Notes: generated from the sequence alone by a model not told the origin. A DNA stretch of 32,000 nt from Rhodospirillaceae bacterium (GCA_041686745.1 JAWLDH010000010.1:94239-126238), one strand, 5' to 3'. Shown: positions 2,047 to 27,869, counted from the stretch's first letter. Numbers and translations: made by a program.

Positions 2047-2091
2047 CCGCGCAGTAGCGGGGGGCTCAGGTTCGGCGCCCCGCGGTGTCCG

Positions 2092-2775: not shown

Positions 2776-2829
2776 GAGGGGGGACTCCTTGTCTCAGTCG
2801 ATCTTGATGCGGGCAACGAATTCCTCTAT

Positions 2830-6200: not shown

Positions 6201-8559
6201 CGGACACCATGCTGTTCACGATCCATGTCGATCCCGCGTCCGACGTCTGCGGCAGGCTCAGCGCCAGGGCGATGACCGGATCCGTCTGGGGAATGCCGAG
6301 ATGCTCCGGGTCCAGGGGGTAGATGATCAGCAGCCCCTGGGTGGCGGGCCGGGCCGCGCGCATGGCCTCGGCGTCATAGGCGCCGCTGTCCCGCTTGTAG
6401 GCGGTGGGGCCGTGGGGCAGGTCCACGCCCTCATGTGCCGGGTCGGTCAGGATGCCGATGCTCTCGCTGCTGATCCGCTTGCGGCGGACCAGCCCCACTT
6501 GCCGACCGCCGAGGGCAACCGGCCGTCCACTTTCGGGTGACGCCACGAAGATGGACCAGTCGGTGAGTTCGTCAACCGCGGCCCGCCCCATGATCCAGTC
6601 GGCAAGACGGTCACTGCGGAAGGCGACGATGTCATCGTGGATCCGGTAGGCGCGCAGGAAGGCCGCGACGGCCTCGGGGGCGACGTCACGGGCCAAAAGG
6701 CCGCCATGGCACCGGACCATTGGGGAAGCCTCCGCGATGAACCTGTCGGCCAACGTGACGTTGGCGCGGAGAGCCTCCCTGTCCGACAAAGGCAGCAGAA
6801 CCGTCTGGGGATGTTCGCCCGACCAGGAATCCTGCTGCGGCTCGGCCGTGCCGGACTTGTTGCGGGCCGTCAGCAGGAGATCGCCATGCGCGCGGATCCG
6901 AATGGCCATCTGATCCGGTCTTCGCCCAGCCCGCCCCAGGGCGACGATGGAGTCCCGCAACGACTGCTCCACGAGGGCCAGTTCGGAGAACCAGCGCGCG
7001 ATGCCGTCGGTGGTCCAGATGCGGATCAGGTCCTCGTAGCCATGGCGGAAGCCGTACCATCGGGCCATCTGCAACAGCGTGTCGCACATCGATGCCGTGC
7101 GCAGGAAATAGGAGACCGTCAGCCCCTCAAGGGTGAGGCCGCGCGACAACCGATTGCCTCCCACCGCCACGATATGCCGTCCGGGCTTCTCGTCGTACTC
7201 CAGGTTCTCGCCGGTGACGCTGTTGAGTTCCAGAACGACGATCTGACGAAGGACGGCGGTGGCCGCGGACAGGACGGCCTCATCGTCGGCGGGGGCGTCG
7301 ATGCCGGACTTCATGTTCTCCCAGACGGGGCCAAAAACCAGATCCAGGTCCTGCCCCTGCCGTTCGGCCTCGCGCCACAGGTCCAACTGGCTGCGGATGG
7401 TGCTGGCGATGCGGTCCTGGTCCGCTGTCCTCGGGCTGACGTGGACGAGCATGGTGTGGGCCTTGCCGGTGAAGCCGGGCCGGAGCGTCCGGATGCCGCC
7501 CGCAAGGCTGAATGAGATGAGCGCGTCGGCCAACGACCCCGGCAGGGCGTTGGTGTCGCGGCCAATGACGATCTCCGCCTTCTTGCGCCGCCTGGGCGCC
7601 CGCAGTGCCTTCACGTCATCGTCAGGCACCGTTTGCAGGACATCACGGCCCTGGGCGCTGACGCCGAACAGCTCCTCGGTTCCGGTGTAGCCCCTGGGGC
7701 GGGGCAACTGGATGACGAAGTCCTTGGGGAAGAGATCGACACCGACGCGGCGGTCAACGGCGTCCGGGTTTATCAGGATGTTGGCGAAAGGCGTCGCCGT
7801 GTAGGCGATGTAGGCGGCCTTCCTTGTCCGGTTCAGGATGGAGCGGATGAGGGCGTTGGTCTTGGAGGGCGCCAGGTTCTCGTCGTCGGCTTCATCGTCC
7901 CCAACCGCAGGATCCGGTGGCCTGTTGCCCTTTGTGTTGATGGACGCCTGGTCGGCCTCGTCGTCGATGACCAGAACCGGCATGTCCTCCAGATAGCGTT
8001 CAGCGGATTTCAGCCAGCGGTCCAGCTTCCGCAGGACGGGGACGTTCTTTTTCACCACCGCGAGAAAAGGCGCCGGCGATTGGAGGATGCGGACGTCCTG
8101 CTCCTTGAAATCGTCCGTCGGCGTCGTCAGCGAGACCCACTCCCGACCCCGTTCCGCCTGAGGCAGTCCTCCGTCCTGGTGGCCGGTCAGTTCCCGCTCC
8201 AGACGGTTCTGGGTTTGACTGCGCAGGGAATCGTGGATGCCCGACAACACGATGACGATACGGTAGCCCGCATCAACGGCACGCGCGGCCACGGCGGTGT
8301 AGTTGGCGGTCTTGCCGCTTTGCACGTAGCCGACAACAAGACCGCGGCCCTGGAAGTCGGTGTTCCGCAACGGGTCGTTCAAGTGGCGCAGGACACGGAG
8401 CGATTCCGCAGCCACCGAGTCCACCTGTTGCGGTTCCCACTTGGGGTCGGCGCGCAGCAAAGCCTCAAGGCGGCTCCAGTGGTACCAGGAGCCTGCCGAC
8501 AGAGTGTCGGTCCAACTCGGCCTCGGCGGCACCGCGCCGACGATGCGAACCGTCGGCAT
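6193..8559 (-). CDS. Z1 domain-containing ATPase (helicase-like P-loop protein)
   Basis: Walker A GLVVGYVQSGKTANYTAV and DEAD-like Walker B VLVIDDEADQASINT. The C-terminal ...GGNRLSRGLTLEGLTVSYFLR...DTLLQMARWYGFRHGY is typical of Z1 proteins. The ATG at 8559 shares an ATGA overlap with the upstream stop. Confidence 0.85.
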   Translation of the reverse strand: MPTVRIVGAVPPRPSWTDTLSAGSWYHWSRLEALLRADPKWEPQQVDSVAAESLRVLRHLNDPLRNTDFQGRGLVVGYVQSGKTANYTAVAARAVDAGYRIVIVLSGIHDSLRSQTQNRLERELTGHQDGGLPQAERGREWVSLTTPTDDFKEQDVRILQSPAPFLAVVKKNVPVLRKLDRWLKSAERYLEDMPVLVIDDEADQASINTKGNRPPDPAVGDDEADDENLAPSKTNALIRSILNRTRKAAYIAYTATPFANILINPDAVDRRVGVDLFPKDFVIQLPRPRGYTGTEELFGVSAQGRDVLQTVPDDDVKALRAPRRRKKAEIVIGRDTNALPGSLADALISFSLAGGIRTLRPGFTGKAHTMLVHVSPRTADQDRIASTIRSQLDLWREAERQGQDLDLVFGPVWENMKSGIDAPADDEAVLSAATAVLRQIVVLELNSVTGENLEYDEKPGRHIVAVGGNRLSRGLTLEGLTVSYFLRTASMCDTLLQMARWYGFRHGYEDLIRIWTTDGIARWFSELALVEQSLRDSIVALGRAGRRPDQMAIRIRAHGDLLLTARNKSGTAEPQQDSWSGEHPQTVLLPLSDREALRANVTLADRFIAEASPMVRCHGGLLARDVAPEAVAAFLRAYRIHDDIVAFRSDRLADWIMGRAAVDELTDWSIFVASPESGRPVALGGRQVGLVRRKRISSESIGILTDPAHEGVDLPHGPTAYKRDSGAYDAEAMRAARPATQGLLIIYPLDPEHLGIPQTDPVIALALSLPQTSDAGSTWIVNSMVSDG

Positions 8560-10559
8560 CAGGCGCCCTTCTTGGCCATGAGGTGTTTCTGAACACCCGC
8601 TTCATCCAGGCCGCCGAGGAAAGCCGCCAGATGTGCGATGGCGTGGGGGTCGGCGCGGAGATGGTTCACCAGCGCGGACAGGCTCGGGTTCACGTCGCTG
8701 ACCTGGACACCGAGCGCCCCGGTCATCCCGGTTGTGACCTTCCACACGAACTTGTCGGTCTTGACGTCCTTGACGGTGACGTTGGGTGCTGGACCGGACG
8801 GCGCAGGCGGTGTTGGAATGGGTGCGGAGCCATTGCCGCCCCCTCCTGCGGGCGGACCGCCCGTCGTAACACCGCCGCCAAAAGGCGCGGGCGCGGTTGG
8901 CGGGGCCTGCTGCGCCTCCTTCCGATACTTCTTCTGGCTGTCCTTGCGGGCGACGTCGGCGATCTTCTTGATTTCGGCCTGGAGCTGCTGGGGGAGCTGG
9001 ACGAGTTGCTTGCTGACGTTGAGCTTGAGCACATCGTCCAGAACGCTGTCGAAGTCGACGATCACCCTGGCGAGCTTGGTCTTTTCGTCGTTCGTATCCC
9101 ACATCTGGTGCCAGCCGCCCCACGTGATGAGGCGGTCATGGCGGTAGATGAAAAGCCCCTGGGTCTCGTTCCGCTTGCCGTGCAGGCCGATCAGGTCGAG
9201 TGCCCGGCGGATCGCCTCAGGCCCCTCGGCCTTATGATGGGCGTTGATCTCATCCTCGGTCGGAAGCAGGTACGCCTGCACCAGAACCTTGCCGTCCTCG
9301 GTTTCGGTCGGAATGCGGATGGTCTTCGCGTCGTAGGCGGCGGCCAGCGGGTGGCCGAACGGGTTGTTGGGCTGGATGGGATTGCCGTTGATGGAGATGG
9401 TGACGGGCTTGCGGCCCTGGGCCTTACCCTCAAGGAAACGGTGGAACACCAGCGCGAGGTGGCGCTCCAGCACCATGATTTCCGAAGAGTGCGGGTCCAG
9501 CCCGCGCGATGTCGGCATCGTCTGCGGCGGGCGCATGTTCTTCCACAGCACGACTGTGCCGTGGCGGTCCAGGGCCGTCGCCTCCTGCTCCCATGGCTCC
9601 AGGGGATCGCCCTTTGCAATCCACCCGTCCATGTCATCGACATCCCAGGAAAGGTGGTGCGCGGGAGCCCCGTCACGCTTGGTCACAACCGTGAAGACCT
9701 TGGCCTGGGACCACGAGGCGCCCTTGAGTCCGTAGCCGTATTTCCCGAGGCTGTTCCCGGCGTAGTCGGACTCGCTGCCAATCCGCATGGCCTCGGCCAG
9801 CTTGGCTTGGTCCATACCGGTTCCATTGTCGGCAATGCTCATCCACCGGCCGTGGCCGCCATCGGGCCGCCCGAAGGTGATCGCGATATGGGTGGCATCC
9901 ACGCTGATGGCGTTGTCCACCAGATCGGCGACGGCCGAAGGAAGCGAGTGTCCAACCGAGGAAAGGATCTTTACCAGACGCGAGGGGTGGGGCGCGAGTT
10001 CAACGCCGCTGGATCCCGCCGGGGCAACGGCCGGGGCGGTCGTGCTGCCGGCCGGAGGTGCCTTGAAAAGGTCAGGTCGCGCCTCGTTCAAAGTCTGCCT
10101 ACTCCGCCTGCCTTCGTTATCATAGAGCGCGATCATGGCCGACTTCGCCAGCTTGCTGCTTTCGCCGTCGGTCAGGATTGCGGTGGTAACCGGGTGGTCC
10201 GCAGGGAAAACCGCCCAGGCACCGGAGGCCGGGCTTGTTCCGGCATCGATCTCCATGGCGAAGAGGCAGCCGGGATCAACGAAATTGTAGTATTTGTCCT
10301 TTGGGCAGTTGCCCTCCAGGCGCCAGTTCTTCTCCTGGCGTTTCAGCCACTGGTGCGCCGTGCTCACACCGCTGTCGGTGTCATACGTCAGCTCCATCTC
10401 GACCAGATCTGAATCCTTGGCCGCAGGGAAAACACGGTCGACCACGTCCCAGTCGAAATTCAGCGCCCGTTGCTTGGAGCCTTCCTTGCCCTGGCGGCGG
10501 TACTCGTGGAACATCCCGAGCTCGCTGTGGGTAAGGATGCGCAGGATCAGGAAACGCAT
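8559..10559 (-). CDS. GHKL-type (HATPase_c_3-like) ATP-binding protein with extra N- and C-terminal domains
   Basis: Bergerat-fold motifs AVADLVDNAISVDA (N box) and SIADNGTGMD (G1 box). I prefer the start at ATG 10559 (MRFLILRIL), which has a GGGGGAGTGG RBS, over 10643. That start overlaps the dcm 3-prime end by 13 nt. A Pro/Gly-rich linker lies near the C-terminus. Confidence 0.85.
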   Translation of the reverse strand: MRFLILRILTHSELGMFHEYRRQGKEGSKQRALNFDWDVVDRVFPAAKDSDLVEMELTYDTDSGVSTAHQWLKRQEKNWRLEGNCPKDKYYNFVDPGCLFAMEIDAGTSPASGAWAVFPADHPVTTAILTDGESSKLAKSAMIALYDNEGRRSRQTLNEARPDLFKAPPAGSTTAPAVAPAGSSGVELAPHPSRLVKILSSVGHSLPSAVADLVDNAISVDATHIAITFGRPDGGHGRWMSIADNGTGMDQAKLAEAMRIGSESDYAGNSLGKYGYGLKGASWSQAKVFTVVTKRDGAPAHHLSWDVDDMDGWIAKGDPLEPWEQEATALDRHGTVVLWKNMRPPQTMPTSRGLDPHSSEIMVLERHLALVFHRFLEGKAQGRKPVTISINGNPIQPNNPFGHPLAAAYDAKTIRIPTETEDGKVLVQAYLLPTEDEINAHHKAEGPEAIRRALDLIGLHGKRNETQGLFIYRHDRLITWGGWHQMWDTNDEKTKLARVIVDFDSVLDDVLKLNVSKQLVQLPQQLQAEIKKIADVARKDSQKKYRKEAQQAPPTAPAPFGGGVTTGGPPAGGGGNGSAPIPTPPAPSGPAPNVTVKDVKTDKFVWKVTTGMTGALGVQVSDVNPSLSALVNHLRADPHAIAHLAAFLGGLDEAGVQKHLMAKKGA

Positions 10560-12142
10560 ATTTTTCCACTCCCCCCCGTGGTCGTCGTCAACTGTTTGTC
10601 GAGGCCCAGCAGGTCGCTGCGCATGTCCGGTATCGACCGGCAACCGATCATCGACCGCATTGCCATGGCGATGGCGTAAGCGACAAGCGGCGGCACGGCG
10701 TTGCCGATTTGCTTGAACGCGGGATTCATGCTCCCGCGCAGCACAAAGCCATCGGGAAACGATTGCAACCGCGCGGCCTCGCGCACCGAGATAGTTCGCG
10801 CCTGTTCACTATCATAGTGGATGTGGCTGTACGAATCTTTCCCGAGATGCGCCATCAGCGTCCGCACCGGCTTGTCCCGGTGGAGCTTCCACCACTTGTT
10901 CGGAAATTTCTCCGGGTCGTAGGGCAGCGTCCATTCCTTGATGAACGCCAGCGTCTCGGCGCTGTCGGCGGCCTTGTCCTCCCCCGACTGCCATCGCTTG
11001 TTCATCATCTGCTGGCGCTTCGCCTCGATGAAGTGCCAGACCGCCGGGTACTGCCAGCCTTCTTCCATCAGGCGGAAAATCTTGTAGTCGCGGGGAAGGT
11101 AGCGGATGACGTGGCCGGTGCTGTGGTCGGTGGTGCCGAACTGTGGCCACTGCCGCATCAGCCTGGACCAGGCGGTTGTCGGAATGGGGGAGGTGTAGCC
11201 CACCGGTTCGGCCGGGTCCTTGCGGCCACGGCGGATTTGCCCTTGCTTCAGCAGGTCCAGGGCGAAGATCGGGGGCAGGTCGGCGAGCGCTTCGCCGGCC
11301 GTGGTGGTTGGCGGCAGGGCGTCATCCTCGGAGGGGTCGCTCATCCAGAAGTGGCCGTGCTCGACCTCCCGGCCGTGCTTGCCGGCTTGCGGAACCAGCT
11401 TTCTGGCTGTTGCCCGGGTTCCCGTGTACCCGGCGGGAAGCCGCGAGAAGTGGGTCGGGGACGGGAAGATCACGTCCTCGTCCAGATCCTCGTGGACCCC
11501 GATCAGGAACATGCGCTCCCGCGTCTGGGGAACGCCGAACCACGAGGCGTTCAGCAGGGTGTAGCGGACCCTGTAGCCCTCCTCCCGGAGATGCTCGGAC
11601 ACGGTTTCGGCGACATTCTTGCCGCCGTGATTCAGGATGTCGGGGACGTTCTCCATCAGAAGCGCGAGGGGCTTGGTCTCGCGCACATAATGCAGATAGC
11701 GCTGCCAGAGGTTCACACGGCCGTCCACCAGGAACGCGATGTCGGCGTCGTCCTCGTCGCGGCGGTGGGCCTCGTGGCGCAGCTTCGCGCGGCCGACACG
11801 GGCAAACGCCTGGCACGGCGGGCCGCCCACCAGGACATCCACCTGTTCGTCCACAGGCCCCGTGAGACCCAGGTCGCGGAAAATGGAGGCGGGGTCCTCG
11901 GCGGTAATGTCACGGGCCTTGTAATGAGCCTGCCGGTTCTTTCCGTGGCTGATCGTCGCGAAGTTCGCGCCATGGGAGTCCGCCGCCCACGGGTCGAGTT
12001 CAACCGAGGCGACAAGTTCAAACCCGGCCGTGGCAAACCCAAGGGAAATGCCGCCGCACCCGGCGAACACGTCCATGAACCTCGGAGGATGATTGTCTTT
12101 CAGCCGGGCCATTTTCCGGCGGAGCGCTACTGACGCGGCCAT
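10547..12142 (-). CDS. dcm: DNA (cytosine-5)-methyltransferase
   Basis: Motif I FMDVFAGCGGISLGF, motif IV LVGGPPCQAFA, motif VI LLMENVPDIL, and motifs IX/X RLQSFPDGF...FKQIGNAVPPLVA. Confidence 0.95.
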   Translation of the reverse strand: MAASVALRRKMARLKDNHPPRFMDVFAGCGGISLGFATAGFELVASVELDPWAADSHGANFATISHGKNRQAHYKARDITAEDPASIFRDLGLTGPVDEQVDVLVGGPPCQAFARVGRAKLRHEAHRRDEDDADIAFLVDGRVNLWQRYLHYVRETKPLALLMENVPDILNHGGKNVAETVSEHLREEGYRVRYTLLNASWFGVPQTRERMFLIGVHEDLDEDVIFPSPTHFSRLPAGYTGTRATARKLVPQAGKHGREVEHGHFWMSDPSEDDALPPTTTAGEALADLPPIFALDLLKQGQIRRGRKDPAEPVGYTSPIPTTAWSRLMRQWPQFGTTDHSTGHVIRYLPRDYKIFRLMEEGWQYPAVWHFIEAKRQQMMNKRWQSGEDKAADSAETLAFIKEWTLPYDPEKFPNKWWKLHRDKPVRTLMAHLGKDSYSHIHYDSEQARTISVREAARLQSFPDGFVLRGSMNPAFKQIGNAVPPLVAYAIAMAMRSMIGCRSIPDMRSDLLGLDKQLTTTTGGSGKICVS

Positions 12143-12287
12143 TCACACATTATCTTGTCATCCAGGGACATCGCGTGGCGCCAATGGGCCCCCGCCTTAC
12201 GGTCCGTAAGGGTAATGCGCCGATCCAATGGACGCAAGCGGAGGGCTTCGCCTCTTCAGCTTGCGATGAAGTGCATCAATGCGGCCT

Positions 12288-12947
12288 TCATCGAAACAGC
12301 GTCACCCCTCGGCTGTCCCTCATGCGGAACACGATGTCGTGGAAGGCCTTGTTGATTTCCTGGTTCCATAAGCGGCGCAGGAAGTCGGCTGCGCCGGGCG
12401 GGGCGGTGGGTTCGTTCCCGAATTCCCCGCGTGGCAGCAGCACCTCCTTGCCAAGCGGGTCGAAGTAGGACCACACCCGGCGCCACTCGACGTTGCCCTC
12501 CTGGCGTTCCATGACGTAGGCGGCCGGAACCACTTCCTTGGACGTCACCTTACCGTGGCGGGTGGCGGCGCGGATGGTTTCGCCGATGATGACCCGGTAG
12601 GTGCGGTCGGCGAAGGGAACCTCCTTTGCCGCACCGAAGACCTCGAAGAAGCCTTGCTCGGAGGCGTCGCGGTGGTAGTACATGCGGAAATCGGTATCCA
12701 TCAGCCGGCGGCGGTCCAAGCCGGCGCCGCAGGCTGCGCGGAACACCCACGGGTCGCTGAGCGGTCCAATGACGACCAGGGTGTGCAGGAAGCGGCCGGG
12801 GTCCTTGCGGCACTCCTCCAGCGCCATGCCGACCACACGGTGAGCGTCCTCGCGCACCCAGTCCCCCTGGGCCGCAAGGGCCGCCGTTGCCGGGGCGGTC
12901 AGCGTGACCGCCGCCAGCGCGATCACCAGCGCAAGTCCCTTCAGCAT
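12288..12947 (-). CDS. secreted hypothetical protein (219 aa)
   Basis: The real gene is the C-terminal part of track ORF 12288-13535. ATG 12947 has a GGGGGAA RBS, followed by the signal peptide MLKGLALVIALAAVTLTAPATAALAAQG. No family recognised. Confidence 0.6.
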   Translation of the reverse strand: MLKGLALVIALAAVTLTAPATAALAAQGDWVREDAHRVVGMALEECRKDPGRFLHTLVVIGPLSDPWVFRAACGAGLDRRRLMDTDFRMYYHRDASEQGFFEVFGAAKEVPFADRTYRVIIGETIRAATRHGKVTSKEVVPAAYVMERQEGNVEWRRVWSYFDPLGKEVLLPRGEFGNEPTAPPGAADFLRRLWNQEINKAFHDIVFRMRDSRGVTLFR

Positions 12948-13471
12948 TGTTTCCCCCTGTGTTGGTCCCGCCGCCGCATCCAAGCATCCTTCAGCGCCAG
13001 CCGGTGGGCAAGGGCGGGATGCTCCAGCACTGTTTGCATCAGGTCTCCATTCCGGCCCAACAGCATGTCCCCCTGCTCGACAATCAGCCGGTTCGGGGCG
13101 GCCTTGGGGCACAACTCGTGCAGACGCGCCACCGCTTCGCCTTCGGCGCCCATGCCGTACCAGTCGGCCAGGATCACCAGGGCCAATGCCGGGGAGCGCG
13201 AAACTCCTTTGGCGCAGTGGATAAGCAGGTCGCCGGCGATCCAGGCGCGGGCAAAGTCGATGGCCCGCCGGATGTCGCCGGGCTGGGGCGGGACGAACCC
13301 CTCCATCGGGACCTCGATATCGTCGAACACAAGGACCAGACGCCCCTGGCCGGGCGGCCCCGGCGGCAGCGGAGGGTTGGCATCGCCACTGCCGATGACG
13401 CTGATGACGGCGTCGAAATGGGAGGCGATTTCCCGCGCCGTCGGGGCCGATACGACAATCGGGCCTTTCAT
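12941..13471 (-). CDS. protein tyrosine / dual-specificity phosphatase-like protein (CX5R)
   Basis: LLIHCAKGVSRSPALALV contains the HCX5R(S) P-loop signature. I prefer the start at ATG 13471 (MKGPIVV), which has a GGAGGG RBS. It overlaps the downstream gene by 7 nt. Confidence 0.7.
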   Translation of the reverse strand: MKGPIVVSAPTAREIASHFDAVISVIGSGDANPPLPPGPPGQGRLVLVFDDIEVPMEGFVPPQPGDIRRAIDFARAWIAGDLLIHCAKGVSRSPALALVILADWYGMGAEGEAVARLHELCPKAAPNRLIVEQGDMLLGRNGDLMQTVLEHPALAHRLALKDAWMRRRDQHRGKQC

Positions 13472-13624
13472 GGCGCCCTCCGTCCGCTGAACACCTTGGG
13501 TCATTCTCTCCAGTGGCCCGCGGCAGCGCCATCAAATCAACGGCTACGCTTTAATGCGTTTGACGGTAGTGCTCCGGGTTGTGCTGCGTATACTGATAAT
13601 CGGGTAATCTTAGGGGGGCCGGGC

Positions 13625-14104
13625 ATGGTCGCGCGCAGGGGCGCTGAATTCGCCGCTTTGATTCATCAACTGCTGGTCCTGGACAAGGTGCGGAGCGTCG
13701 AGGACGTCGCCCGCGACATGGGCATGGAGTACCACACGCTCTACGCCCGCGTCGGGCGGGACACGCCATTCTCCGCCGAAGAGATCAAGGCGCTGATCCG
13801 CGTCGTGGGTGATATTCGGATCTTGAAGTATTTCACCGACGACAGCCCCTATGTCGTCGTCGAACGCTCCAGCCCCTGCGATGTCGCCGCGCACGACGAA
13901 CTGCACAAGGGACTGGTGGCCGAAGCCCACAACACGGTTTTTGAAGCCGCCGACCTTCTGGAAGCCATCGCCACCGCCCTGGCCGACAGGAAGATCGACC
14001 ACCGGGATGCGCTGCTCATCCGCCAGGAGGTGGACCACTGTGAGCGTGCCCTGGCGGCCATTCGCCGTCTGCTCGACCTCAAGGAAGGAAAGGTGCCGGC
14101 ATGA
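13625..14104 (+). CDS. HTH-containing regulator, phage CII (CP76)-like (159 aa)
   Basis: Only the last 159 codons of track ORF 12947-14104 look real. The HTH-like segment is VEDVARDMGMEYHTLYARVGRDTPFSAEEIKALI, followed by a helical C-terminus. The layout resembles P2/186-type CII proteins from memory. ATGA overlap with the next gene. Confidence 0.45.
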   Translation: MVARRGAEFAALIHQLLVLDKVRSVEDVARDMGMEYHTLYARVGRDTPFSAEEIKALIRVVGDIRILKYFTDDSPYVVVERSSPCDVAAHDELHKGLVAEAHNTVFEAADLLEAIATALADRKIDHRDALLIRQEVDHCERALAAIRRLLDLKEGKVPA

Positions 14105-15546
14105 TGAAGGGGCATCGCTCTCCCACGCCGATGCAGCCGCGCACGCCCTCCCTGCCGGTCGATCCCGACCTGCCGGAGGACGGCCTGCTGGTCGGCTGGT
14201 CGCTGGAAGCCGAACACCAACGGGTGCCGGTCGGCTTCCGCTTCGCAGGCGCATCCACGGAACACCGGCGGGCCGGGGAGCATCTCGACCCCATCCTGTT
14301 CACCGCCGAGGGGCACCTCATCACCATCGCCCCGACCGGCGCCGGCAAGGGCATCGGGGCGCTGATCCCGACCCTGCTGCGCCATCCCGGACAGGTCATC
14401 GTCATCGACCCCAAGGGCGAGAACTACCGCGTCACGGCGGCGCGGCGGCGGGCCATGGGGCAGCGCGTGGTGCTGTTCGATCCCTTCGGTATCACTGGCG
14501 AGGAGGCTTGCAACAAGGACGGATTCAATCCTCTTGACCTGTTGAAGCTGGACAGCCCGGTGGTGGAGGAGGACGCCTTCACCCTGGCGGCCATGCTGGT
14601 GGCTGAGAAATCCATGCGCGATCCGTTTTGGGACAACATGGCGCGCCACGTCGTGACGGCCCTGATGCTGCATATCGTGCAGTCCTTGCCTGGTCCGCTG
14701 CGCAACCTGGGCGAACTGCACTATCTGCTCAATCAGGCCCGCGATGGCTGGGCCGTCACCCTGCTGGAGATGGAGCGGTCCAAGCTGGCACCGATACGCC
14801 TCGGCGGGGCCGCAATATCGGGCTGGGAGCCCAAGGTGCGGGCCAGCATTATGGCCACCGCCCAGTCCCATGTCGGCTTCCTGCGCGGTTCCGGGGTGCA
14901 GGGGCACCTGACGCGGACCACCTTCGAGGTGCAGGACTTCGTCGATGGCGCGCCGATGTCCATTTACCTGGTCCTGCCGCCGGAGCGTCTGGACAGCCAC
15001 GCCGCCCTGCTGCGGTTGTGGGTTGGCTCTCTGGTGTCGCTGGTGCTGCGCCGTCGCCACCCGCCGCAGCGCAAGACCCTGTTCCTGCTGGACGAGGCGG
15101 CGCAACTCGGGCCGTTGGACCAGTTCCGTCAGGCCGTCACCCTGCTGCGCGGGTATGGTCTTCAGACGTGGTCGTTCTGGCAGGACTTCAGCCAGTTGCA
15201 GAGGCTCTATCCCGAGGATTGGGAGACAATCTTTAACAACTGCAAGGTCTTTCAGGCTTTTGGCTTCAACACCTTCAACGCCGCCCGCGCGGCGGCCCAG
15301 GCGGCGGGGCATCCAGATCCACAGGCGTTGTTCGAGATGGACGCCGACGAGATGATGCTGATGATCGCTGGCGACGAGCCGGTCATTGCCCAGCGCCCCA
15401 ACTACCTGATCGACGCGCCGTTTGAGGGGCTGTTCGAGCCCAACCCCTACCACACGCCCGACGACCTTGACGCCGTGACACCGCGTTTGCCGCAGCGTGA
15501 GTACCGCCGGCCCGGTGCGGTTGCGGAAGAGGAGCCGGTGACTTGA
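14101..15546 (+). CDS. VirD4/TraG-type type IV coupling protein-like ATPase lacking the N-terminal TM region
   Basis: HLITIAPTGAGKGIGALIPTLLRHPGQVIVIDPKGENYRVTAARRR..GQRVVLFDPFG gives Walker A plus the conserved DPKGE block. LFLLDEAAQLG is Walker B, and LRGYGLQTWSFWQDFSQLQRLY is also conserved. No hydrophobic helices occur in the first 100 aa, and at 481 aa it is short for a T4CP. Confidence 0.85.
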   Translation: MMKGHRSPTPMQPRTPSLPVDPDLPEDGLLVGWSLEAEHQRVPVGFRFAGASTEHRRAGEHLDPILFTAEGHLITIAPTGAGKGIGALIPTLLRHPGQVIVIDPKGENYRVTAARRRAMGQRVVLFDPFGITGEEACNKDGFNPLDLLKLDSPVVEEDAFTLAAMLVAEKSMRDPFWDNMARHVVTALMLHIVQSLPGPLRNLGELHYLLNQARDGWAVTLLEMERSKLAPIRLGGAAISGWEPKVRASIMATAQSHVGFLRGSGVQGHLTRTTFEVQDFVDGAPMSIYLVLPPERLDSHAALLRLWVGSLVSLVLRRRHPPQRKTLFLLDEAAQLGPLDQFRQAVTLLRGYGLQTWSFWQDFSQLQRLYPEDWETIFNNCKVFQAFGFNTFNAARAAAQAAGHPDPQALFEMDADEMMLMIAGDEPVIAQRPNYLIDAPFEGLFEPNPYHTPDDLDAVTPRLPQREYRRPGAVAEEEPVT

Positions 15547-16820
15547 TCGTCGCCGCGCGCCTGATGGGTGCCTGGGCGGCGTGGAGCATCGGCGACTTTC
15601 GGGCCGCAGCGGCGGAATTCGCCTGGGTGGAACTCTCGGCCCTGTCGGCGCCCGAGCAGGTCAGGGAGGCCATCACTGGGCGGAACCTCTGCTGGATCGC
15701 CCTGGGTTATCCGGCGAGGGACACAGCCGTGCCCCCGGAGGAGCGCGAGGGGGTGGACCTGGTGGTGGACGGCCTGACCTCGCTGGCAGCCGGCAATACG
15801 GCGGGCGCCCAGAGCGCGCTGGGGCTGGTGTACACGCCCCACGGGGTGACGCCGGTTCCGCAAGGACTGCGACCGCCGTTGCTGAAGGCCTTTGTGGATC
15901 TCTGCCGCGCCATCACGGCAGAACGCGAAGGCCTGCCGGAAACCGTTACCGAACATGCCACCCGTGGCCTCGAAGACCTTCTGGCAACCGGAGGCGACGG
16001 TGTGGCTGAGGCGGCCCTGGCCCGTCGATTGCGCGCCCGGACCGGCGAGGTCGTGCCGCCCCCGGAGGACAAGCCGCGCTGCTTTACCGAGGTCCTAGCG
16101 GTGGTCGAGGAGGCCCTGTCCGCCTACCGCGCCGCACCCGGCCCGGAGGGGGCGGAGTTCAAGGCGGCGGGAGAGCGCCTGTTCAAGGCGCTGCGTCCGG
16201 CGGTGGTGCCGGGCCAGCCGTGGTCGCCCGACCTTCTGCACACCGCAGTCGAGGCCGCTTGGCTGGCGGTGCAGTGGGAGGAGGACACCGGGGTTTATCA
16301 GCCCCTGGCGTCGTCGTTCCTGGCCATGGCCCGTCGCGCCGCCGGGCTGTTCCCGCCCGACCTATTGACCCAGACCAAGCCGTTGAACCATCCGCTTCAG
16401 GCCGACATGGGCCGCCTGACCCTGGCCGAGGCCCTCCGCTTTCGCCGTCAGCGCGATGCCCGCACCACCTTGCGCACGGCCCTGACCGCGCGTGGTCTGC
16501 TGGCCCCGCTGGTCCAGGCGCGGTCGGTTGAACTCGCCACGCCGGAGGCGGCGGATTACGTCGAGGTCTGCCTTCTGGCCGACGCGCTGGAGGTGGAACT
16601 TGGCGGCGGCCCGGCCCAGGCCGACCCGACCGATGGCGTCCTGACCTCGGCCGTGCTGATCGCCGGACCGGGGCAGCGGGTCTATCTGGCCGCCGCCGCC
16701 CGGCCCGAGGCGACGGAGCAAGTCCGCAAGGAGGCCGACGGCATGGCCGAACACTGGACCCCGGCGCCGTGGGAGGTGCAGCGGCACGGGCGGGCGGTGG
16801 AGGTGGCTCAAAAACCCTAG
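15543..16820 (+). CDS. hypothetical Ala/Leu-rich helical protein (425 aa)
   Basis: TTG start at 15543 in a TTGA overlap with the T4CP stop (alternative ATG at 15564). The frame is long and open, and the composition suggests helical repeats. No family recognised. Confidence 0.5.
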   Translation: MIVAARLMGAWAAWSIGDFRAAAAEFAWVELSALSAPEQVREAITGRNLCWIALGYPARDTAVPPEEREGVDLVVDGLTSLAAGNTAGAQSALGLVYTPHGVTPVPQGLRPPLLKAFVDLCRAITAEREGLPETVTEHATRGLEDLLATGGDGVAEAALARRLRARTGEVVPPPEDKPRCFTEVLAVVEEALSAYRAAPGPEGAEFKAAGERLFKALRPAVVPGQPWSPDLLHTAVEAAWLAVQWEEDTGVYQPLASSFLAMARRAAGLFPPDLLTQTKPLNHPLQADMGRLTLAEALRFRRQRDARTTLRTALTARGLLAPLVQARSVELATPEAADYVEVCLLADALEVELGGGPAQADPTDGVLTSAVLIAGPGQRVYLAAAARPEATEQVRKEADGMAEHWTPAPWEVQRHGRAVEVAQKP

Positions 16821-16904
16821 TTCCCGTTTGACGGTGCTCGAACCGTCTTCGCGCTACCTTGACGATCCGGGCGATGGCCCAAGGTCGTTCAAAAGGAGGG
16901 TGGC

Positions 16905-17786
16905 ATGATCGGGTTCGTCAAGACATGGTGGAGCGGCGTGGAGGCCAAGCGCCATCAACACGATGCCGAAAAGCGTGAAGCAATTCTGGAGGTCCAGGTG
17001 GCAGAGGCCCGCCGGGATCTCGGGTTTTTCCAGATTGACGCCGACGTTCCCCCGGAAATCAAGGACAGGGTGGCCGACCTCTTCCCGGTGACGGCGGACA
17101 CCCTGCCGCGGGTCCGGGCCTTCCTGAACGATCCCGCGATGCGCGCCCTGCGCGGTGGCATCGAGGAGCTGCGCGATATAGAAGTTTTCGTGCGCTCCCT
17201 CGGCGGCGACGGGCAGGTGTCGTTCACCCTGCGGGATTTCGCCGCCCATTTCGGGTTCGGCCCGCAGCGCGAGGCGAGCAAGCTCCTGCACTCGCCCGAC
17301 CTTCTGGGACAGGTTGGCTACGGCACTCTGGTCAAGGGAGCAACCGGCGCGATGATCGTCGGCGCGGCGATGGTGGGCACCGTCAAGCAGTCCATGCACA
17401 ACGGCTACATCACCGCCAGCGTCGGCGGCATGGGCTTCAGCCGCCATTCCTCGGCAATGAGCGTGCCGGAGCGTCAGGCGATGGCGCTCCTGTATGTCTT
17501 GCACAAGCGGGGAAAGGTTCCCGAACGCGACTACAAGGGGCTTTTCTTTGCCATGGTCTTCGCCAATGGCCACTGCGACGACAGCATCGTCGGCGACGGC
17601 CTGGGCGGCCGCAGCATCGGCGACAAGGACCTGATTGCCCAGCGCATCGGCCGCCACTTGGTGGGCAGCCGCATCGCCCCCCTGGAAAAGGCGCTGGACG
17701 TCATCATGGCCCGGCGGACTCTGCTGGCGCCGTGTGACCTGGAGACCGTTGACCGCCAACTGGCGCCGCTCAGTCGCGTGGGGTGA
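16905..17786 (+). CDS. hypothetical protein with a Gly-rich hydrophobic segment (293 aa)
   Basis: Strong RBS AAAAGGAGGG 4 nt before ATG 16905. Its composition is natural compared with the antisense ORF 16854-17759. The segment TLVKGATGAMIVGAAMVGTV resembles a glycine zipper or TM helix. Confidence 0.6.
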   Translation: MIGFVKTWWSGVEAKRHQHDAEKREAILEVQVAEARRDLGFFQIDADVPPEIKDRVADLFPVTADTLPRVRAFLNDPAMRALRGGIEELRDIEVFVRSLGGDGQVSFTLRDFAAHFGFGPQREASKLLHSPDLLGQVGYGTLVKGATGAMIVGAAMVGTVKQSMHNGYITASVGGMGFSRHSSAMSVPERQAMALLYVLHKRGKVPERDYKGLFFAMVFANGHCDDSIVGDGLGGRSIGDKDLIAQRIGRHLVGSRIAPLEKALDVIMARRTLLAPCDLETVDRQLAPLSRVG

Positions 17787-17814
17787 TCTCTCCGGCGGCG
17801 GCTAACCCGCATGG

Positions 17815-18099
17815 TTACAGAATATAGGTGCCACTCAGCTCGGGGAATGGCGCGCCGCCAATGGCCAGGCAGTGCATACGGCCGCGGGCGCCAACGGCAT
17901 AGACCCGCAGCATGTCTTCCGGGTCCAGTTCTCCTTGGATGCGCGCGGCCAGGGTGCGGGCGGCATGCGGGGTCATGAATACCTCGAACACGCTTTTCTG
18001 CACCCGTACGGCCTCGTCTTCCAGTAGGGCGGCGACCCGCGCCCGCACGCGGGGGCGGGCGATGTCGTAGCAGAAAACCATCAAGTATTCGGTGGCCAT
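17815..18099 (-). CDS. cas2: CRISPR-associated endoribonuclease Cas2
   Basis: 94 aa. The pattern YLMVFCYDI...RVRARVAALLEDEAVRVQKSVFEV...LRVY is the Cas2 ferredoxin-fold pattern. The GAGGGA RBS overlaps the RT-cas1 stop. Confidence 0.9.
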   Translation of the reverse strand: MATEYLMVFCYDIARPRVRARVAALLEDEAVRVQKSVFEVFMTPHAARTLAARIQGELDPEDMLRVYAVGARGRMHCLAIGGAPFPELSGTYIL

Positions 18100-18105
18100 G
18101 ATCCC

Positions 18106-20076
18106 TCAGTAGTCCATGTGATAGGGAACATAGGGCGCGTCGCCCAGGACGGCCTCGGCATAGAGGGCCACCTGGTCGGCGACCAGGTTGCGCCAGGTGC
18201 CCTTGGCGCCGGTCGCCGGGCTGACCACCGGCCGCTCCAGCCAGCCCTCATAGCCGGAAATGATCCGCTTCCGGGCCTCCGGGTCGAACTGGACCGCGCC
18301 GTCGCGATCGCGGGCGGCGAACATCTCCATCGACAGGCGGCGGCCGTTGAACAGGGTCACGGTCAGGGCCTCGGCAATGGGGGTGCGGAACTCTTCCATC
18401 AGGTCATTGACGCAGGCCGGTGCGCCGTCGCGTGGGGTGTGCAGGGCGCCGAAGCCCGGATGCAGCCCCTCGCGGTCGACGGCGGCGGACAGGTCGCGCT
18501 CCAGCAGCGTGGCCACGAACGACAGCACGGCGTTGACCGGATCCGTCGGAGGGCGCCGTTGCCTACCCGGCAAGGACGCGCCATGGCGCAGCAGGCGCGA
18601 CAGGGCCGGCCAGTACAGGGCGGCGGCCTCGCCTTCCACTCCCATCACGCGCGGCACCGAGTCCATGAGGGGCAGCTTGCGGCGCAGGCGGCCGATGCGC
18701 CGCGCCACATCGGCCACCGTGTCGTCGTCGGCGGTCCGGTTGAGGCGGCGCAGCAGGGAACGCTGGTTGTGTATGCGGGCCTCCACGATGGTGGCGGCCA
18801 GGGCGGTGCGCCGCGCGTCATCGAGGCAGATGCGCGCCTGCGCCAGATGCAATCCGACCCTCTCCGCCGACGGGCGGGCGAGGCTGGCCAGGGTGGCGCC
18901 GTGGCCGGTGACGATATCGACGCGAATGCCTTCGGCCGCCAAGTGGGCCAGGGCGTCCTCGTCGATGGCGCAGCCGGGACCCAGTTCCACCCGGTCGAGG
19001 CGGCCCGGCGCGATGGCCAGCAGTTCACGGTCGCCATCCCGCACCGTCAGCGCCATGTTGCGCACCGCTAGGCGCCGGCCCGGTTGGACTAGGTAGAGAG
19101 AGCGTAGTACCGGCCGGCGGGGGCTGTCGCGCTCGGCCAGGGGGGTGATGATTTCGGCCTCCTCCAGTGTTTCCGGCTGGCGGGGTGGTGGCACCGGCAC
19201 CGGCGCCGGGCCTTGGGCCGGGGCTGGATCTTCGTCCCCCGTCGAATCCACCACCAGCGAGCGCACGAACAGCCGTCCCAGGAAGCGGAACCCCTCGTCG
19301 AAGGACACCAGCCGTGTCTTGTTCGGGTTCAGGCGCAACCCCAGCCGTTCCAACTGCCCGGCCAGGCGCGCCAGGGCACCGGCTGCGCGGGCCTCGGACC
19401 GGCACAGGACAATGAAGTCGTCGGCAAAGCGCACCAAGTGGGCTCCGGTGCCCTCCATCGCCTCGTCGACCTCATCGAGGAACAGGTTGGCGAGCAGCGG
19501 CGACAGCGGGGACCCTTGCGGAAACCCCCGGCCTTCGGGCGCGGCACCGGAAAGCCACTGATTGACCAGGGCGATGAGGGGCGCCTCGCCAACACTGCGC
19601 CCCAGGCGTGCCAACAGCTTGTCATGCGGCACCGAATCGAAGAACCGTTCAATGTCGCCATCGACCACCCAGGTATAGCCCTGGCGGCGCAGGTGGCTGA
19701 TGCGTTCCACCGCCTGCCCGACGGACCGGCCGGGCCGGTAGGCATAGCTCGCCGGTTCCATCTCCGCATCCAGCAGGGGACCCAATACCGCCACGGCGGC
19801 GGCCTGCGTGATGCGGTCGGCGATACAGGGGATCAGCAGGGTCCGCGTGCCGCCCGACCGCTTGGGAATGTCCACCCGGCGCAGCGGGCCAGGATGGTAG
19901 CGGCGCGCCCGCAGCGCCTGACCCAGGCGGGCCAGCCGTTCGGGAAGGTGGGCGGAGAACTGCCCGATGGTCACGCCATCCCCTCCTGGCCCCCCTTGAT
20001 TGCGGGCCACCCGCAGCCATCCGGCATGTAGCCCGTCCCAGGATGTAATGGCATCAAACAGTGGTGTATCGCTCAC
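18106..20076 (-). CDS. cas1: reverse transcriptase-Cas1 fusion protein
   Basis: The N-terminal half is a group II intron-like RT: NQGGPGGDGVTIGQF, RRVDIPKRSGGTRTLLIPCIADRITQAA, and the active-site block VRFADDFIVLC (YxDD-type). The C-terminal half is Cas1-like: LYWPAL...NAVLSFVATLLERDL...GLHPGFGALHTPRDGAPACVNDLMEEFR. GTG start at 20076. No Cas6 domain is fused. Confidence 0.95.
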   Translation of the reverse strand: MSDTPLFDAITSWDGLHAGWLRVARNQGGPGGDGVTIGQFSAHLPERLARLGQALRARRYHPGPLRRVDIPKRSGGTRTLLIPCIADRITQAAAVAVLGPLLDAEMEPASYAYRPGRSVGQAVERISHLRRQGYTWVVDGDIERFFDSVPHDKLLARLGRSVGEAPLIALVNQWLSGAAPEGRGFPQGSPLSPLLANLFLDEVDEAMEGTGAHLVRFADDFIVLCRSEARAAGALARLAGQLERLGLRLNPNKTRLVSFDEGFRFLGRLFVRSLVVDSTGDEDPAPAQGPAPVPVPPPRQPETLEEAEIITPLAERDSPRRPVLRSLYLVQPGRRLAVRNMALTVRDGDRELLAIAPGRLDRVELGPGCAIDEDALAHLAAEGIRVDIVTGHGATLASLARPSAERVGLHLAQARICLDDARRTALAATIVEARIHNQRSLLRRLNRTADDDTVADVARRIGRLRRKLPLMDSVPRVMGVEGEAAALYWPALSRLLRHGASLPGRQRRPPTDPVNAVLSFVATLLERDLSAAVDREGLHPGFGALHTPRDGAPACVNDLMEEFRTPIAEALTVTLFNGRRLSMEMFAARDRDGAVQFDPEARKRIISGYEGWLERPVVSPATGAKGTWRNLVADQVALYAEAVLGDAPYVPYHMDY

Positions 20077-22367: not shown

Positions 22368-22368
22368 G

Positions 22369-22692: not shown

Positions 22693-22847
22693 GGTGTCAT
22701 TTCCGCTCACTGGCATCCAATTTTTAGCTGATAATTGAGCCGTCGGGTGGGCAAAAAATCAAGACAAAATAGAAGCGAATTTTTGATTGCTCTTCTGGAG
22801 GTTGAATCGCCATAATTTTCGCGGAGGCGGCAGGCGGGGGAAGTCGG
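22693..22847. promoter_or_regulatory. divergent control region between csx16/membrane-CARF and the cmr operon
   Basis: A 155-bp AT-richer intergenic region. On the plus strand, a possible TTGCTC (22787-22792), 18 nt, CATAAT (22811-16). I have not verified a minus-strand promoter. Confidence 0.3.
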
Positions 22848-24251
22848 TTGCGTAAAATCGAGGCGACGTTTGAGGTGCTTACGCCCCTCTTTACCGGGCG
22901 GGATCCGCATGCGGACAGCGGTGAGTTGAGGCCAGCCGCGGTGAAGGGGGTGCTCCGCTTCTGGTGGCGTGCTCTGGCATGGGGGATCTACGAGCCGTTG
23001 GCGCGCCGACGAGGCAATACTCCTCTTGCGCTCCTTCATGAGGCCGAAGCATGGCTTTTCGGGTCCGCCTCAAACGGCGTGTCACGAGTCCGCATCCGGG
23101 TGAACCTCGATGACCATGATCCAAGCGATCCACCGTTTCCGGATGGGGCGAAGCCCTATCCTTACCTCGGCTATGGACTCAACGCGGACAAGGGCACCAC
23201 GACGGACGTGCCCAAGCCGGCACGGGTCGCTTGTGCCGTAAGGGTTTTCGCAGTTCACTTGTTTTATGATGATCGGTTGCCACCGGAAAATCACCTATTT
23301 CGCGAGATAGCATTGGAAGCCCTGGAGTTGCTGCCGCAGGCCGTGAGGGCTCTGGGTCTTCTCGGTGGCGTGGGGGCGAGAACCCGACGGGGCTTCGGAA
23401 GTCTCTGCCTGACGTCGATGCGGATCAGTGAAGGGCGTCGCCAAAGCGGGAGCGATACTCCGGACGTCGAGGTCCAGACCCTGGATGAGTACGAGGCATC
23501 GTTGAAGGAGTTGCTGCGGCGTGCCTTCAAAGGCGAGGTGCCTGCGCCGCCGTATTCGGCGTTCTCGCCATCAGCCAGCGTGACCATTTGCATCGCCCAC
23601 GAAAGCGCTTCCATGGTGCTTCATGAGGCTGGCTTCGTGATGCAGCACTATCGGAGTTATGGCGGGCGTGGGCCGGGAAGTACCCCCCCGCATCGTTTGA
23701 TGATTCCCGAAGCGTTGCAGCACGAAAAAACCCGCCTGATCCCCGTTGGCGAAGGTGCAGGCGATGAAACCTGGGAAAGAAGTTTCGTCGATGACCATGA
23801 TGATTTCTACTTGGGAAAAAACACAAAGGTTCCTCGTCGTACCGCGTTCGGTTTGCCGCATAATTACGGAGCAAAGAAGTATGTGGCGGCTCGGATAGGT
23901 GGGGAATTGAAAGCCCGACGGGCCTCTCCTCTTCATTTTCATGTCCACAAACTGAAAACAAAGACAGATAAGCCGTACTACGTATTGGTGCTTACCGTGC
24001 TCATGCCGGCAGAAGACAGTTATCTGCCTCCTGGGGCAGAGTTGGTCTGGAGAAGCACTACCGCGAAAGCGCCCAATGGATGGGAAAAACTCCCTGGAGC
24101 TGTTGATCTTGGGGTCATTGAGCAGTTCGTCGCCCGCTTCAACCATGTCACTGAGGACGGATATTCCATCGCACGACTGGACGCAGGGATACCCATGCCG
24201 CAGGTCGAACGTCAGCTCGAACAGAGCCTCCCGCGCAAGGTGAACCCATGA
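22848..24251 (+). CDS. cmr1: type III-B RAMP protein Cmr1
   Basis: TTG start with a GGGGGAAG RBS. The N-terminus IEATFEVLTPLFTGRDPHADSGELRPAAVKGVLRFWWRAL is the canonical Cmr1 signature (LTPLF.GG...AELRP.SIKG.LRFWWRA). Confidence 0.85.
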   Translation: MRKIEATFEVLTPLFTGRDPHADSGELRPAAVKGVLRFWWRALAWGIYEPLARRRGNTPLALLHEAEAWLFGSASNGVSRVRIRVNLDDHDPSDPPFPDGAKPYPYLGYGLNADKGTTTDVPKPARVACAVRVFAVHLFYDDRLPPENHLFREIALEALELLPQAVRALGLLGGVGARTRRGFGSLCLTSMRISEGRRQSGSDTPDVEVQTLDEYEASLKELLRRAFKGEVPAPPYSAFSPSASVTICIAHESASMVLHEAGFVMQHYRSYGGRGPGSTPPHRLMIPEALQHEKTRLIPVGEGAGDETWERSFVDDHDDFYLGKNTKVPRRTAFGLPHNYGAKKYVAARIGGELKARRASPLHFHVHKLKTKTDKPYYVLVLTVLMPAEDSYLPPGAELVWRSTTAKAPNGWEKLPGAVDLGVIEQFVARFNHVTEDGYSIARLDAGIPMPQVERQLEQSLPRKVNP

Positions 24252-26533: not shown

Positions 26534-26534
26534 C

Positions 26535-27833: not shown

Positions 27834-27869
27834 AGCATGGCCGAGGGCGGGCACGGGGGGAGAGAAGAA

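Follow-up and report, generated by a model that had tools for sequence, protein, structure and literature searches.

Mutants of genuine type IV coupling proteins (T4CPs) that lack the transmembrane domain (TMD) are non-functional in conjugative transfer (PMC7431656). HerA and NurA have been catalogued as accessories of type III CRISPR–Cas systems (PMC6546367), and in three Menshen NsnA proteins an N-terminal T4SS-DNA_transf domain has been proposed as a sensor domain of these anti-phage proteins of the NsnABC system (PMC12065111). VirD4/TraG-type ATPases are not mentioned in the account of STAND-NTPase conflict systems by Kaur et al. 2021 (PMC8195603), and the open-access literature yielded nothing that links them with CARF, Cas10 or STAND systems. 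Here we analysed a 32,000-nucleotide (nt) stretch of DNA from a Rhodospirillaceae bacterium (GCA_041686745.1 JAWLDH010000010.1:94239-126238), referred to below as the window, which encodes a T4CP-fold ATPase of 481 amino acids (aa) that lacks a membrane anchor. A role as a conventional coupling protein is ruled out for this ATPase. We lean towards reading the four plus-strand genes to which it belongs as one half of a six-gene cassette that constitutes a non-conjugative immune or conflict module built on the T4CP-fold ATPase. The features of the cassette are listed here, with positions counted from the first letter of the window and L-numbers denoting homologous loci:

12254..17810, both strands: six-gene cassette, 5.56 kb, defined by a blastn match to L013
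12288..12947, minus strand: p219, an open reading frame (ORF) of 219 aa with a signal-peptide-like N terminus (MLKGLALVIALAAVTLTAPATAALAAQ), its start set by the L013 gene call
12941..13504, minus strand: p187, a Cys-based dual-specificity-like phosphatase-like protein of 187 aa, divergent from the next gene
13625..14104, plus strand: CII/CP76-family helix-turn-helix (HTH) regulator, 159 aa (PF06892, phrog_101)
14101..15546, plus strand: TM-less T4CP-fold (VirD4/TraG/TrwB-like) P-loop ATPase, 481 aa (PF02534, PF12696, PF10412)
15543..16820, plus strand: p425, an Ala/Leu-rich ORF of 425 aa whose start overlaps the ATPase stop
16905..17786, plus strand: p293, an ORF of 293 aa with a homologue in L008

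The assignment of the ATPase to the T4CP fold rests on both profiles and structure. The protein matches PF02534 (3e-53) and PF10412 (3e-13), as well as PF12696. Its motifs are GAGKG (residue 80), DPKGE (103) and LLDE (329), of which Walker A and B are invariant in 30 relatives. An AlphaFold2 (AF2) model made from an alignment of 30 relatives reached a pLDDT of 89.7 and contains a helical block at approximately residues 144-281, which together with the PF10412 match corresponds to the all-alpha domain inserted in the nucleotide-binding domain (NBD). The top Foldseek matches of this model were the T4CPs Cag-beta (8dol, E 2e-19), TrwB-deltaN70 (1e9s, 2e-14) and DotL (6sz9, 3e-9), with alignments to Cag-beta and TrwB extending over 400-470 columns; beyond the T4CPs, the nearest structures were the defence ATPases TdpAB, DndH, SIR2-HerA (8sub) and DUF4297-HerA (8zir). 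The membrane anchor is missing from the gene itself: 19 codons ahead of the ATPase start the reading frame is closed by a stop, so no N-terminal membrane domain can have been missed, and the most hydrophobic 19-residue window of the protein scores 1.27 on the Kyte-Doolittle scale. All nine NCBIfam TraG/VirD4 models remained below their cut-offs, the best giving 126 bits against 674. A preliminary description of this locus, made from the sequence alone, had pictured a 481-aa coupling-protein ATPase that retains Walker A, DPKGE and Walker B without transmembrane (TM) helices, and both the motifs and the absence of an anchor were borne out.

The ATPase belongs to a large and ancient clade that is orphan to conjugation and has a partner domain of its own. 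A word-indexed search returned 1361 relatives, and among the best 120 of these, which are 46-86% identical to the window ATPase and 444-793 aa long, every one (120/120) lacks an N-terminal hydrophobic segment and has its Walker A motif at approximately residues 40-120. A scan with one genome per species located at least 541 genomic loci, hosted by Alpha-, Beta- and Gammaproteobacteria, Planctomycetota, Spirochaetota, Verrucomicrobiota, Gemmatimonadota and Bacteroidia. Members of the clade are 40-86% identical to the window ATPase, whereas canonical plasmid T4CPs, for example the 841-aa protein of pNOR-2000 that is encoded beside a TraA relaxase, reach at most approximately 35%. An N-terminal beta-hairpin region (residues ~28-48) and the C-terminal motif PNYLxDxxF...NP are conserved specifically within the clade. 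Matches of approximately 47% on Sinorhizobium megaplasmids lie away from the transfer genes and adjoin a 254-aa hypothetical protein, a patatin and a giant ankyrin protein. A metagenome scan for closer relatives found none above 54% identity, phage records held nothing above 33%, and a single distant relative appeared among 2.9 million viral contigs.

Conjugation genes were sought at several scales. Profile searches with Pfam and NCBIfam detected no relaxase, VirB4 or pilin-type protein in the window, as the preliminary description had proposed for conjugation genes in general; in 11 homologous contexts, where all genes within 10 kb had been annotated with Pfam, no type IV secretion system (T4SS) or relaxase family was present; and no conjugation family recurred among 111 operon partners (91 + 20). 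These partners come from approximately 170 loci, in which the genes neighbouring the ATPase were called with a home-made amino-acid log-odds caller and then clustered; gene calling based on GC content at third codon positions (GC3) failed on horizontally acquired genes. Across these loci we found no homologue embedded in a complete conjugative or T4SS element, the finding that the preliminary description had named as fatal to a defence role. In one locus (L007, Wenzhouxiangella) two soluble T4CP paralogues lie 8 kb apart. In two genera (L007 266-2136, L046 8317-11628), T4CPs of a short sub-clade (415-422 aa) have a receiver-like cREC_REC protein (PF20274) encoded after them.

The four plus-strand ORFs are all present in the six-frame ORF list, and the translational coupling described for them can be read directly in the sequence. 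At the HTH/ATPase junction (14099-14106, GCATGATG) the ATPase ATG overlaps the HTH TGA in a 4-nt ATGA, and at the ATPase/p425 junction (15541-15548, ACTTGATC) the TTG start of p425 overlaps the TGA stop of the ATPase in a 4-nt TTGA; p293 follows p425 after a gap of 84 nt. A promoter and terminator scan returned nothing beyond chance in this high-GC DNA. The operon is not, however, the unit that evolution has handled. A Logan assembly, L013, aligns by blastn to window positions 12254-14441 and 15220-17810 at 94-95% nucleotide identity, and the rest of the window has no alignment to it, so that the shared unit is a cassette that adds the minus-strand genes p219 and p187 to the four genes of the operon and ends just past the outermost stop codons. 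The flanks of this block in L013 are wholly different from those in the window, with no cas gene within 6-10 kb. Because the same block stands in unrelated flanks, it moves as a block: the cassette is compact, mobile and horizontally shuffled, and no convincing terminal repeats, integrase or recombinase were found at its ends.

Comparison of the two copies also bears on whether the cassette genes are real. The ratio of nonsynonymous to synonymous substitution rates (dN/dS) between the window and the 94%-identical L013 copy is 0.04-0.24 across all six genes (p219 0.24, p187 0.22, HTH 0.05, ATPase 0.04-0.05, p425 0.20, p293 0.11), which indicates purifying selection throughout; the two orphan genes, p425 and p293, are therefore genuine. 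The L013 ATPase has an in-frame 777-bp deletion at L013 8314-8316 (= window 14442-15219) that removes its core, including Walker B. The leftover codons show strong purifying selection (dN/dS 0.04-0.05), and the deletion either happened very recently or results from misassembly.

Outside the ATPase, the cassette proteins range from recognizable to nearly orphan. The HTH protein matches PF06892 (Phage_CP76/CII) over residues 22-148 at 39.3 bits, where the cut-off is 26, and among the PHROG profiles it matches phrog_101 ('CII-like transcriptional activator', 3e-11), which upholds its description as CII-like; among the loci read, its gene was seen elsewhere only in L013. p425 is Ala/Leu-rich, as described (18% Ala, 12% Leu), and has no match in Pfam, NCBIfam, PADLOC, PHROG or PDB. 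A word-indexed search of 5.8 billion clusters returned p425 itself as its sole homologue, and both the HTH protein and p425 are known from one near-identical copy only. At the p425 position L008 has a 388-aa gene, also with a 4-nt overlap, which shares a weak N-terminal motif with p425 (E 0.064). L008 also encodes a full-length homologue of p293 (28% identity, E 5e-33), two genes from an ATPase 61% identical to that of the window. For p293 the word-indexed search gave near-identical copies only, a full HMMER search of 1.84 billion representatives brought its family to six clusters, and Pfam, PADLOC and PDB searches gave no significant family or PDB match for it; the single-sequence AF2 model of p293 was unusable (pLDDT 39). 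The preliminary description had assigned p293 a glycine-zipper-like hydrophobic segment after the 84-nt gap. Gap and stretch are both there, and the Gly/Ala-rich stretch is probably not a membrane segment because its hydrophobicity (peak 1.33) is too low for a transmembrane helix and because it is not conserved in the one clear homologue, that of L008. The trio of ATPase, helical protein and p293 is kept in the window, in the divergent, CRISPR-adjacent L008 and in L013, and nowhere else; p425 and p293 are thus near-orphans and lineage-specific partners. On the minus strand, p187 reaches PF00782 (DSPc) at 5.8e-4, below cut-off, with weak PDB matches to DUSP13/26/18, and has an intact HCAKGVSRS motif (HCX5RS) at residue 96; a p187 homologue directly adjoins the T4CP in L110. 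p219 has no family match in PHROG or PADLOC, and its homologue in L009 (31% identity) adjoins a Card1-like nuclease upstream of a sister T4CP.

For most of the family the partner is a different one. A domain of approximately 240 aa, which we call C0, is encoded directly upstream of the ATPase on the same strand in 86 cases and is fused to the ATPase C terminus in 13, giving T4CPs of approximately 700 aa, so that approximately 60% of family members are paired with or fused to C0; these fusions argue for a physical interaction with the ATPase. C0 also terminates giant nSTAND1-ankyrin proteins of 1700-1800 aa and occurs twice in a 968-aa protein of L021. It has no sequence match in Pfam or PDB and, judged from this distribution, looks like an adaptor. 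Examples of C0-bearing genes, found among L022-L068 and in other loci, are:

L025: 9225-9968
L033: 9038-9886 and 11432-16825
L024: 9986-12238

An hmmsearch with the C0 profile found no copy in the window at E <= 1. When 170 ATPases were clustered by average linkage, a group of 93, nearly all with C0, separated from the window's own group (cluster 17) of 19, none of which has C0. The preliminary description had called for a check of whether the TM-less T4CP keeps company with the two unknown genes; both unknown genes accompany it in L013, a p293 homologue and a gene in the p425 position do so in L008, and most of the family uses C0 instead. The other operon partners are highly diverse, including NYN domains, STAND, TPR, WD40 and ankyrin giants, and many proteins without a family, and the neighbours include HigBA, SoFic and, in L009, an integrase. 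In L098, a short contig, a SoFic gene (1945-3111, PADLOC 4e-123) directly adjoins a soluble T4CP of cluster 17. Hypervariable partners and defence-type neighbours favour an immune or conflict role. A cytochrome-c-like 148-aa gene (cluster C1) upstream of the Planctomycete members was considered as a further partner and rejected, as it probably reflects local synteny among related Gemmata.

Type III CRISPR–Cas or CARF genes lie in or beside 6 of the 62 C0-less loci and none of the 101 C0 loci (Fisher p = 0.003). Cluster 17 accounts for four of these six (the window, L008, L028 and L096); of the other two, L047 belongs to cluster 13 and L123 to cluster 8. Because host GC content in these six loci ranges from 43% to 67% and the type III subtypes differ, they do not descend from one inherited island. 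The gene orders are:

L028: ATPase, CARF-HEPN, Cas10, Cas5, Cas7 (III-D)
L047: ATPase, 184 aa, Csx16, TM-CARF, reverse transcriptase (RT)-Cas1, Cas10
L123: CARF5 (opposite strand), ATPase, CARF-PD-DExK, Csx16, TM-CARF, Cas10
L096: Cas2 and RT-Cas1 (opposite strand), CARF-PD-DExK, 205 aa, ATPase
L008: CARF-GGDEF, further genes, ATPase, 388 aa, p293 homologue, further genes, Csx19, RAMPs, Cas10
Window: ATPase, p425, p293, Cas2 and RT-Cas1 (opposite strand), array, TM-CARF and Csx16 (opposite strand), Cmr1-6, array

In several of these loci the ATPase shares its strand run with genes for CARF-HEPN, CARF-PD-DExK, TM-CARF or Csx16. The Csx16-then-TM-CARF pair stands beside the soluble T4CP in L047 and L123, and the same pair is present in the window; RT-Cas1/Cas2 beside the T4CP is likewise found in L096 and L047. 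The sister loci L009, L010 and L013 encode a 255-267-aa Card1-like nuclease that matches the Card1/CARF-PD-DExK profiles in their nuclease half only (approximately profile positions 157-360 of 364), and in L010 its start overlaps the ATPase stop. Pfam and PADLOC found no CARF or SAVED domain in the HTH protein, the ATPase, p425, p293 or p187. Type III CRISPR ancillary genes and a Card1-type nuclease thus recur in the vicinity of sub-clade members. The cassette had been placed between a restriction-modification (R-M)-like system and CRISPR–Cas, in a defence island; that location stands, and the repeated type III CRISPR/CARF link, which the description had not anticipated, speaks against mere defence-island clustering.

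The systems on either side of the cassette in the window are:

5199..12142, minus strand: Mza-like set, namely DUF4420/MzaD-like, Z1/MzaC-like, HATPase/MzaB-like and C5 DNA methylase (PADLOC, Pfam)
17815..20076, minus strand: Cas2 and RT-Cas1 fusion (adaptation module), abutting the cassette (PF09827; PF01867 + PF00078)
20241-20690: CRISPR array of 7 repeats
20784-22502, minus strand: TM-CARF ancillary protein, 572 aa (PADLOC CARF8--CARF_TM 1.7e-11; no Pfam match)
22369-22716, minus strand: csx16, 115 aa, overlapping the TM-CARF start (PADLOC Csx16 1.8e-30)
22848..30091, plus strand: type III-B effectors, namely Cmr1-like RAMP, Cas10/Cmr2, Cmr3, Cmr4, Cmr5-sized ORF and Cmr6 (Pfam, NCBIfam)
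30248-31127: CRISPR array of 13 repeats, in opposite orientation to the first

The R-M-like system and CRISPR–Cas of the preliminary description are therefore the Mza-like methylase set on one side and RT-Cas1/Cas2 with the Cmr III-B genes on the other. On the left flank, PADLOC recognized MzaB (4e-38), MzaC (2e-95), MzaD (9e-13) and MTase_II (4e-71), and Pfam recognized DUF4420, Z1, HATPase_c_3 and DNA_methylase. On the right, the two arrays bracket the cas genes and their 37-nt repeats are identical at 33/37 positions as reverse complements; TM-CARF and csx16 are the cyclic oligoadenylate (cOA)-signalling arm of the window's type III-B locus. Base composition is strongly mosaic, with a GC content of 67% in the cassette, 70% in cas1-cas2, 50% in TM-CARF/csx16 and 57% in cmr, so the island is probably a composite whose components differ in origin; the host GC3 bias is missing from the cmr and methylase genes. 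Small ORFs lie beside the Mza-like set at 4759-5217 and upstream. Another possible defence-type pair occupies positions 371-3120, at the island's left edge, where the genes for a 518-aa AAA-family ATPase and for a 394-aa protein that ends in an HTH_3 domain are divergent.

For the module as a whole we infer ring formation, DNA engagement, partner binding, an immune role and cooperation with CRISPR. By analogy with TrwB-deltaN70, the ATPase might assemble as a ring on nucleic acid or on an invader protein-DNA complex, with ATP hydrolysis, and would provide an immune or conflict module with both its sensor and its motor. Lineage-specific partners or effectors could be recruited through the all-alpha domain and the conserved tail, as substrates and CagZ are bound in real T4CPs. 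In most of the family this partner would be C0, which may also tether the giant STAND NTPases. In the C0-less sub-clade the partners would have been swapped, for p425 and p293 in the window, for the 388-aa gene product and the p293 homologue in L008, and elsewhere for a CARF-less Card1-type PD-(D/E)xK nuclease, NYN proteins or STAND giants. The CII-like HTH protein would control the divergent promoter region. The module probably acts alongside the window's type III-B system, because it is found repeatedly in or next to type III cOA-signalling loci.

How close that connection with type III systems is can be argued. The ATPase module might be a true type III CRISPR–Cas ancillary that works downstream of or in parallel with cOA signalling, for example as a motor that delivers or activates nucleases, or that feeds RT-Cas1/Cas2 adaptation. 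The strand runs that join the ATPase to CARF effectors and cas10 in L028, L047 and L123 would be expected of such a component, as would its position beside RT-Cas1/Cas2 in the window, L096 and L047, the occurrence in the window of the same Csx16 and TM-CARF pair as in L047 and L123, and the coupling of a CARF-less Card1-type nuclease to sister ATPases. The association also spans three T4CP clusters and distant hosts, and an earlier example of a ring ATPase associated with type III loci is HerA-NurA (PMC6546367). However, 56 of the 62 C0-less loci have no CRISPR nearby, a 94%-identical cassette exists in L013 with no cas gene within 6-10 kb, a CARF or SAVED domain is absent from the ATPase, p425 and p293, and the ATPase is not among the type III accessory families of PMC6546367; we consider a strict ancillary role possible and on balance doubtful. 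A cytoplasmic decoy or sensor for conjugative transfer, which would recognize relaxase-DNA or T4SS substrates and then poison transfer or trigger its partners, seems unlikely to us. It would account for the retention of the all-alpha domain and the TraG-D_C region, which bind substrates in real T4CPs, STAND partners would suit a sensor, and a T4CP chimera in which the heterologous TraJ TMD is fused to the TrwB cytosolic domain is negatively dominant over native coupling proteins (PMC7431656). Yet no locus links a relaxase, oriT or entry-exclusion gene to the ATPase, and a decoy explains the type III CRISPR/CARF linkage no better than a general anti-invader role does.

The label 'conjugative DNA transfer protein' that Pfam and genome annotators attach to the ATPase invites another explanation, that it is a leftover or hitch-hiking conjugation gene, either a coupling protein with which an integrative mobilisable element exploits a T4SS encoded elsewhere or a decaying fragment of such an element. 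Mobilisable plasmids may have a T4CP of their own (PMC7431656), and the cassette is mobile, with an integrase near the ATPase in L009. Against this, the anchor is absent in 120/120 relatives and TMD-less T4CPs do not support transfer (PMC7431656), there is no relaxase in approximately 170 loci, the clade has its own conserved partner domain, and a dN/dS of 0.04-0.05 with conservation across many phyla is incompatible with decay, all of which makes a conjugative leftover very improbable. An origin of the cassette as a prophage- or satellite-derived regulatory module, with a phage CII-type regulator as its first gene, is harder still to credit: the HTH protein does match PF06892 and phrog_101, but neither the cassette nor the window has any further phage gene, PHROG gave no match for the ATPase, p425 or p293, and phage records stop at 33% identity with one distant relative in 2.9 million viral contigs. 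We rejected a phage origin on these PHROG, phage-record and viral-contig searches. Membership in a known defence system, which the preliminary description had proposed to examine, was likewise rejected: PADLOC returned a weak mad8 match (30 bits) for the ATPase and nothing for p425, p293, p187 or p219.

Several observations weigh against a non-conjugative immune or conflict module. PADLOC-DB v2 recognizes no system in the cassette beyond that weak mad8 match, no phenotype is on record for any member of the clade, and p425 and p293 have no recognizable effector domain. Many C0-type loci lie among housekeeping genes rather than in defence islands. The CRISPR link consists of six loci only, with 56/62 C0-less loci and the L013 cassette away from CRISPR, and may partly reflect defence-island clustering. 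The L013 copy lacks the ATPase core, so the other cassette genes may work without the ATPase. Finally, the home-made gene calling used for the approximately 170 loci is imperfect, as an over-extended HTH ORF illustrates. The immune or conflict module nevertheless remains the reading that we favour. The preliminary description had suggested a DNA-sensing or DNA-pumping module repurposed for defence; the T4CP fold, the missing anchor and the absence of a link to conjugation agree with this suggestion, and the pattern of partners and neighbours favours it. Its alternative suggestion, that the module excludes conjugative elements, is conjecture.

We also put forward, tentatively, a wider proposal, that TM-less T4CP-fold ATPases are unrecognized, phylum-spanning immune motors. 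Their C0 branch would couple the ring to STAND giants, and the window's branch would be a new type III ancillary ATPase that works with CARF or CARF-less Card1-type nucleases, p425 and p293, possibly linking the handling of invader DNA to cOA signalling or to RT-Cas1 adaptation. If this is true, the fold of a conjugative coupling protein has been recruited for immunity, as HerA has been, in a new ATPase-plus-effector architecture. C0 would then be a new adaptor linking a ring ATPase to STAND NTPases, and type III CRISPR–Cas signalling would gain a previously unlisted companion, making cooperation of a DNA motor with cOA-activated nucleases or with RNA-derived spacer acquisition testable. Searches of open-access papers turned up no account of the clade or of C0, and none of VirD4-type ATPases in type III loci. 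Since genome pipelines give these proteins a conjugation-type annotation, hundreds of chromosomal loci have probably been mis-scored as conjugation remnants in mobilome surveys.

Set beside known systems, the window ATPase is closest to the canonical T4CPs (VirD4, TrwB of R388, TraG, Cag-beta and DotL), with which it shares an NBD with an all-alpha insertion, Walker A and B, a DPKGE-type motif and its best structural matches. Unlike them, it and the relatives checked have no N-terminal membrane domain, its clade has no relaxase or T4SS genes in the loci examined, identity is at most approximately 35% and NCBIfam scores lie below cut-offs, and the clade has a beta-hairpin region, a C-terminal motif and a partner domain of its own. 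Three Menshen NsnA proteins likewise place a T4CP-type ATPase domain in a defence context (PMC12065111), but those are fusion proteins, whereas here the ATPase is a stand-alone gene of a far larger family and PADLOC found no Menshen component. Type III ancillary effectors (Card1/Can2, Csm6 CARF-HEPN, TM-CARF and Csx16) are of the kind that flank the ATPase in L028, L047, L096, L123 and L008, with TM-CARF and Csx16 in the window, and the Card1 nuclease domain recurs beside sister ATPases; in contrast to these effectors, neither the ATPase nor p425 or p293 contains a CARF or SAVED domain, and the Card1-like partners keep the nuclease half only. With the STAND-NTPase conflict systems (PMC8195603) the family shares giant nSTAND1-ankyrin, WD40 and TPR proteins beside many members, with C0 in common and an adaptor-like logic, although the window cassette itself has neither a STAND protein nor C0. 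SIR2-HerA, DUF4297-HerA and HerA-NurA belong to the same FtsK/HerA/VirB4/T4CP superfamily and also encode a ring ATPase together with an effector. They represent a different family (TMq 0.42-0.43, against 0.64 for Cag-beta), the all-alpha insertion is specific to T4CPs, and p425, p293, C0 and the Card1-type nuclease are unrelated to SIR2, DUF4297 and NurA. The family described here is mis-annotated, and the finding would belong with the immune modules that are centred on a ring ATPase.

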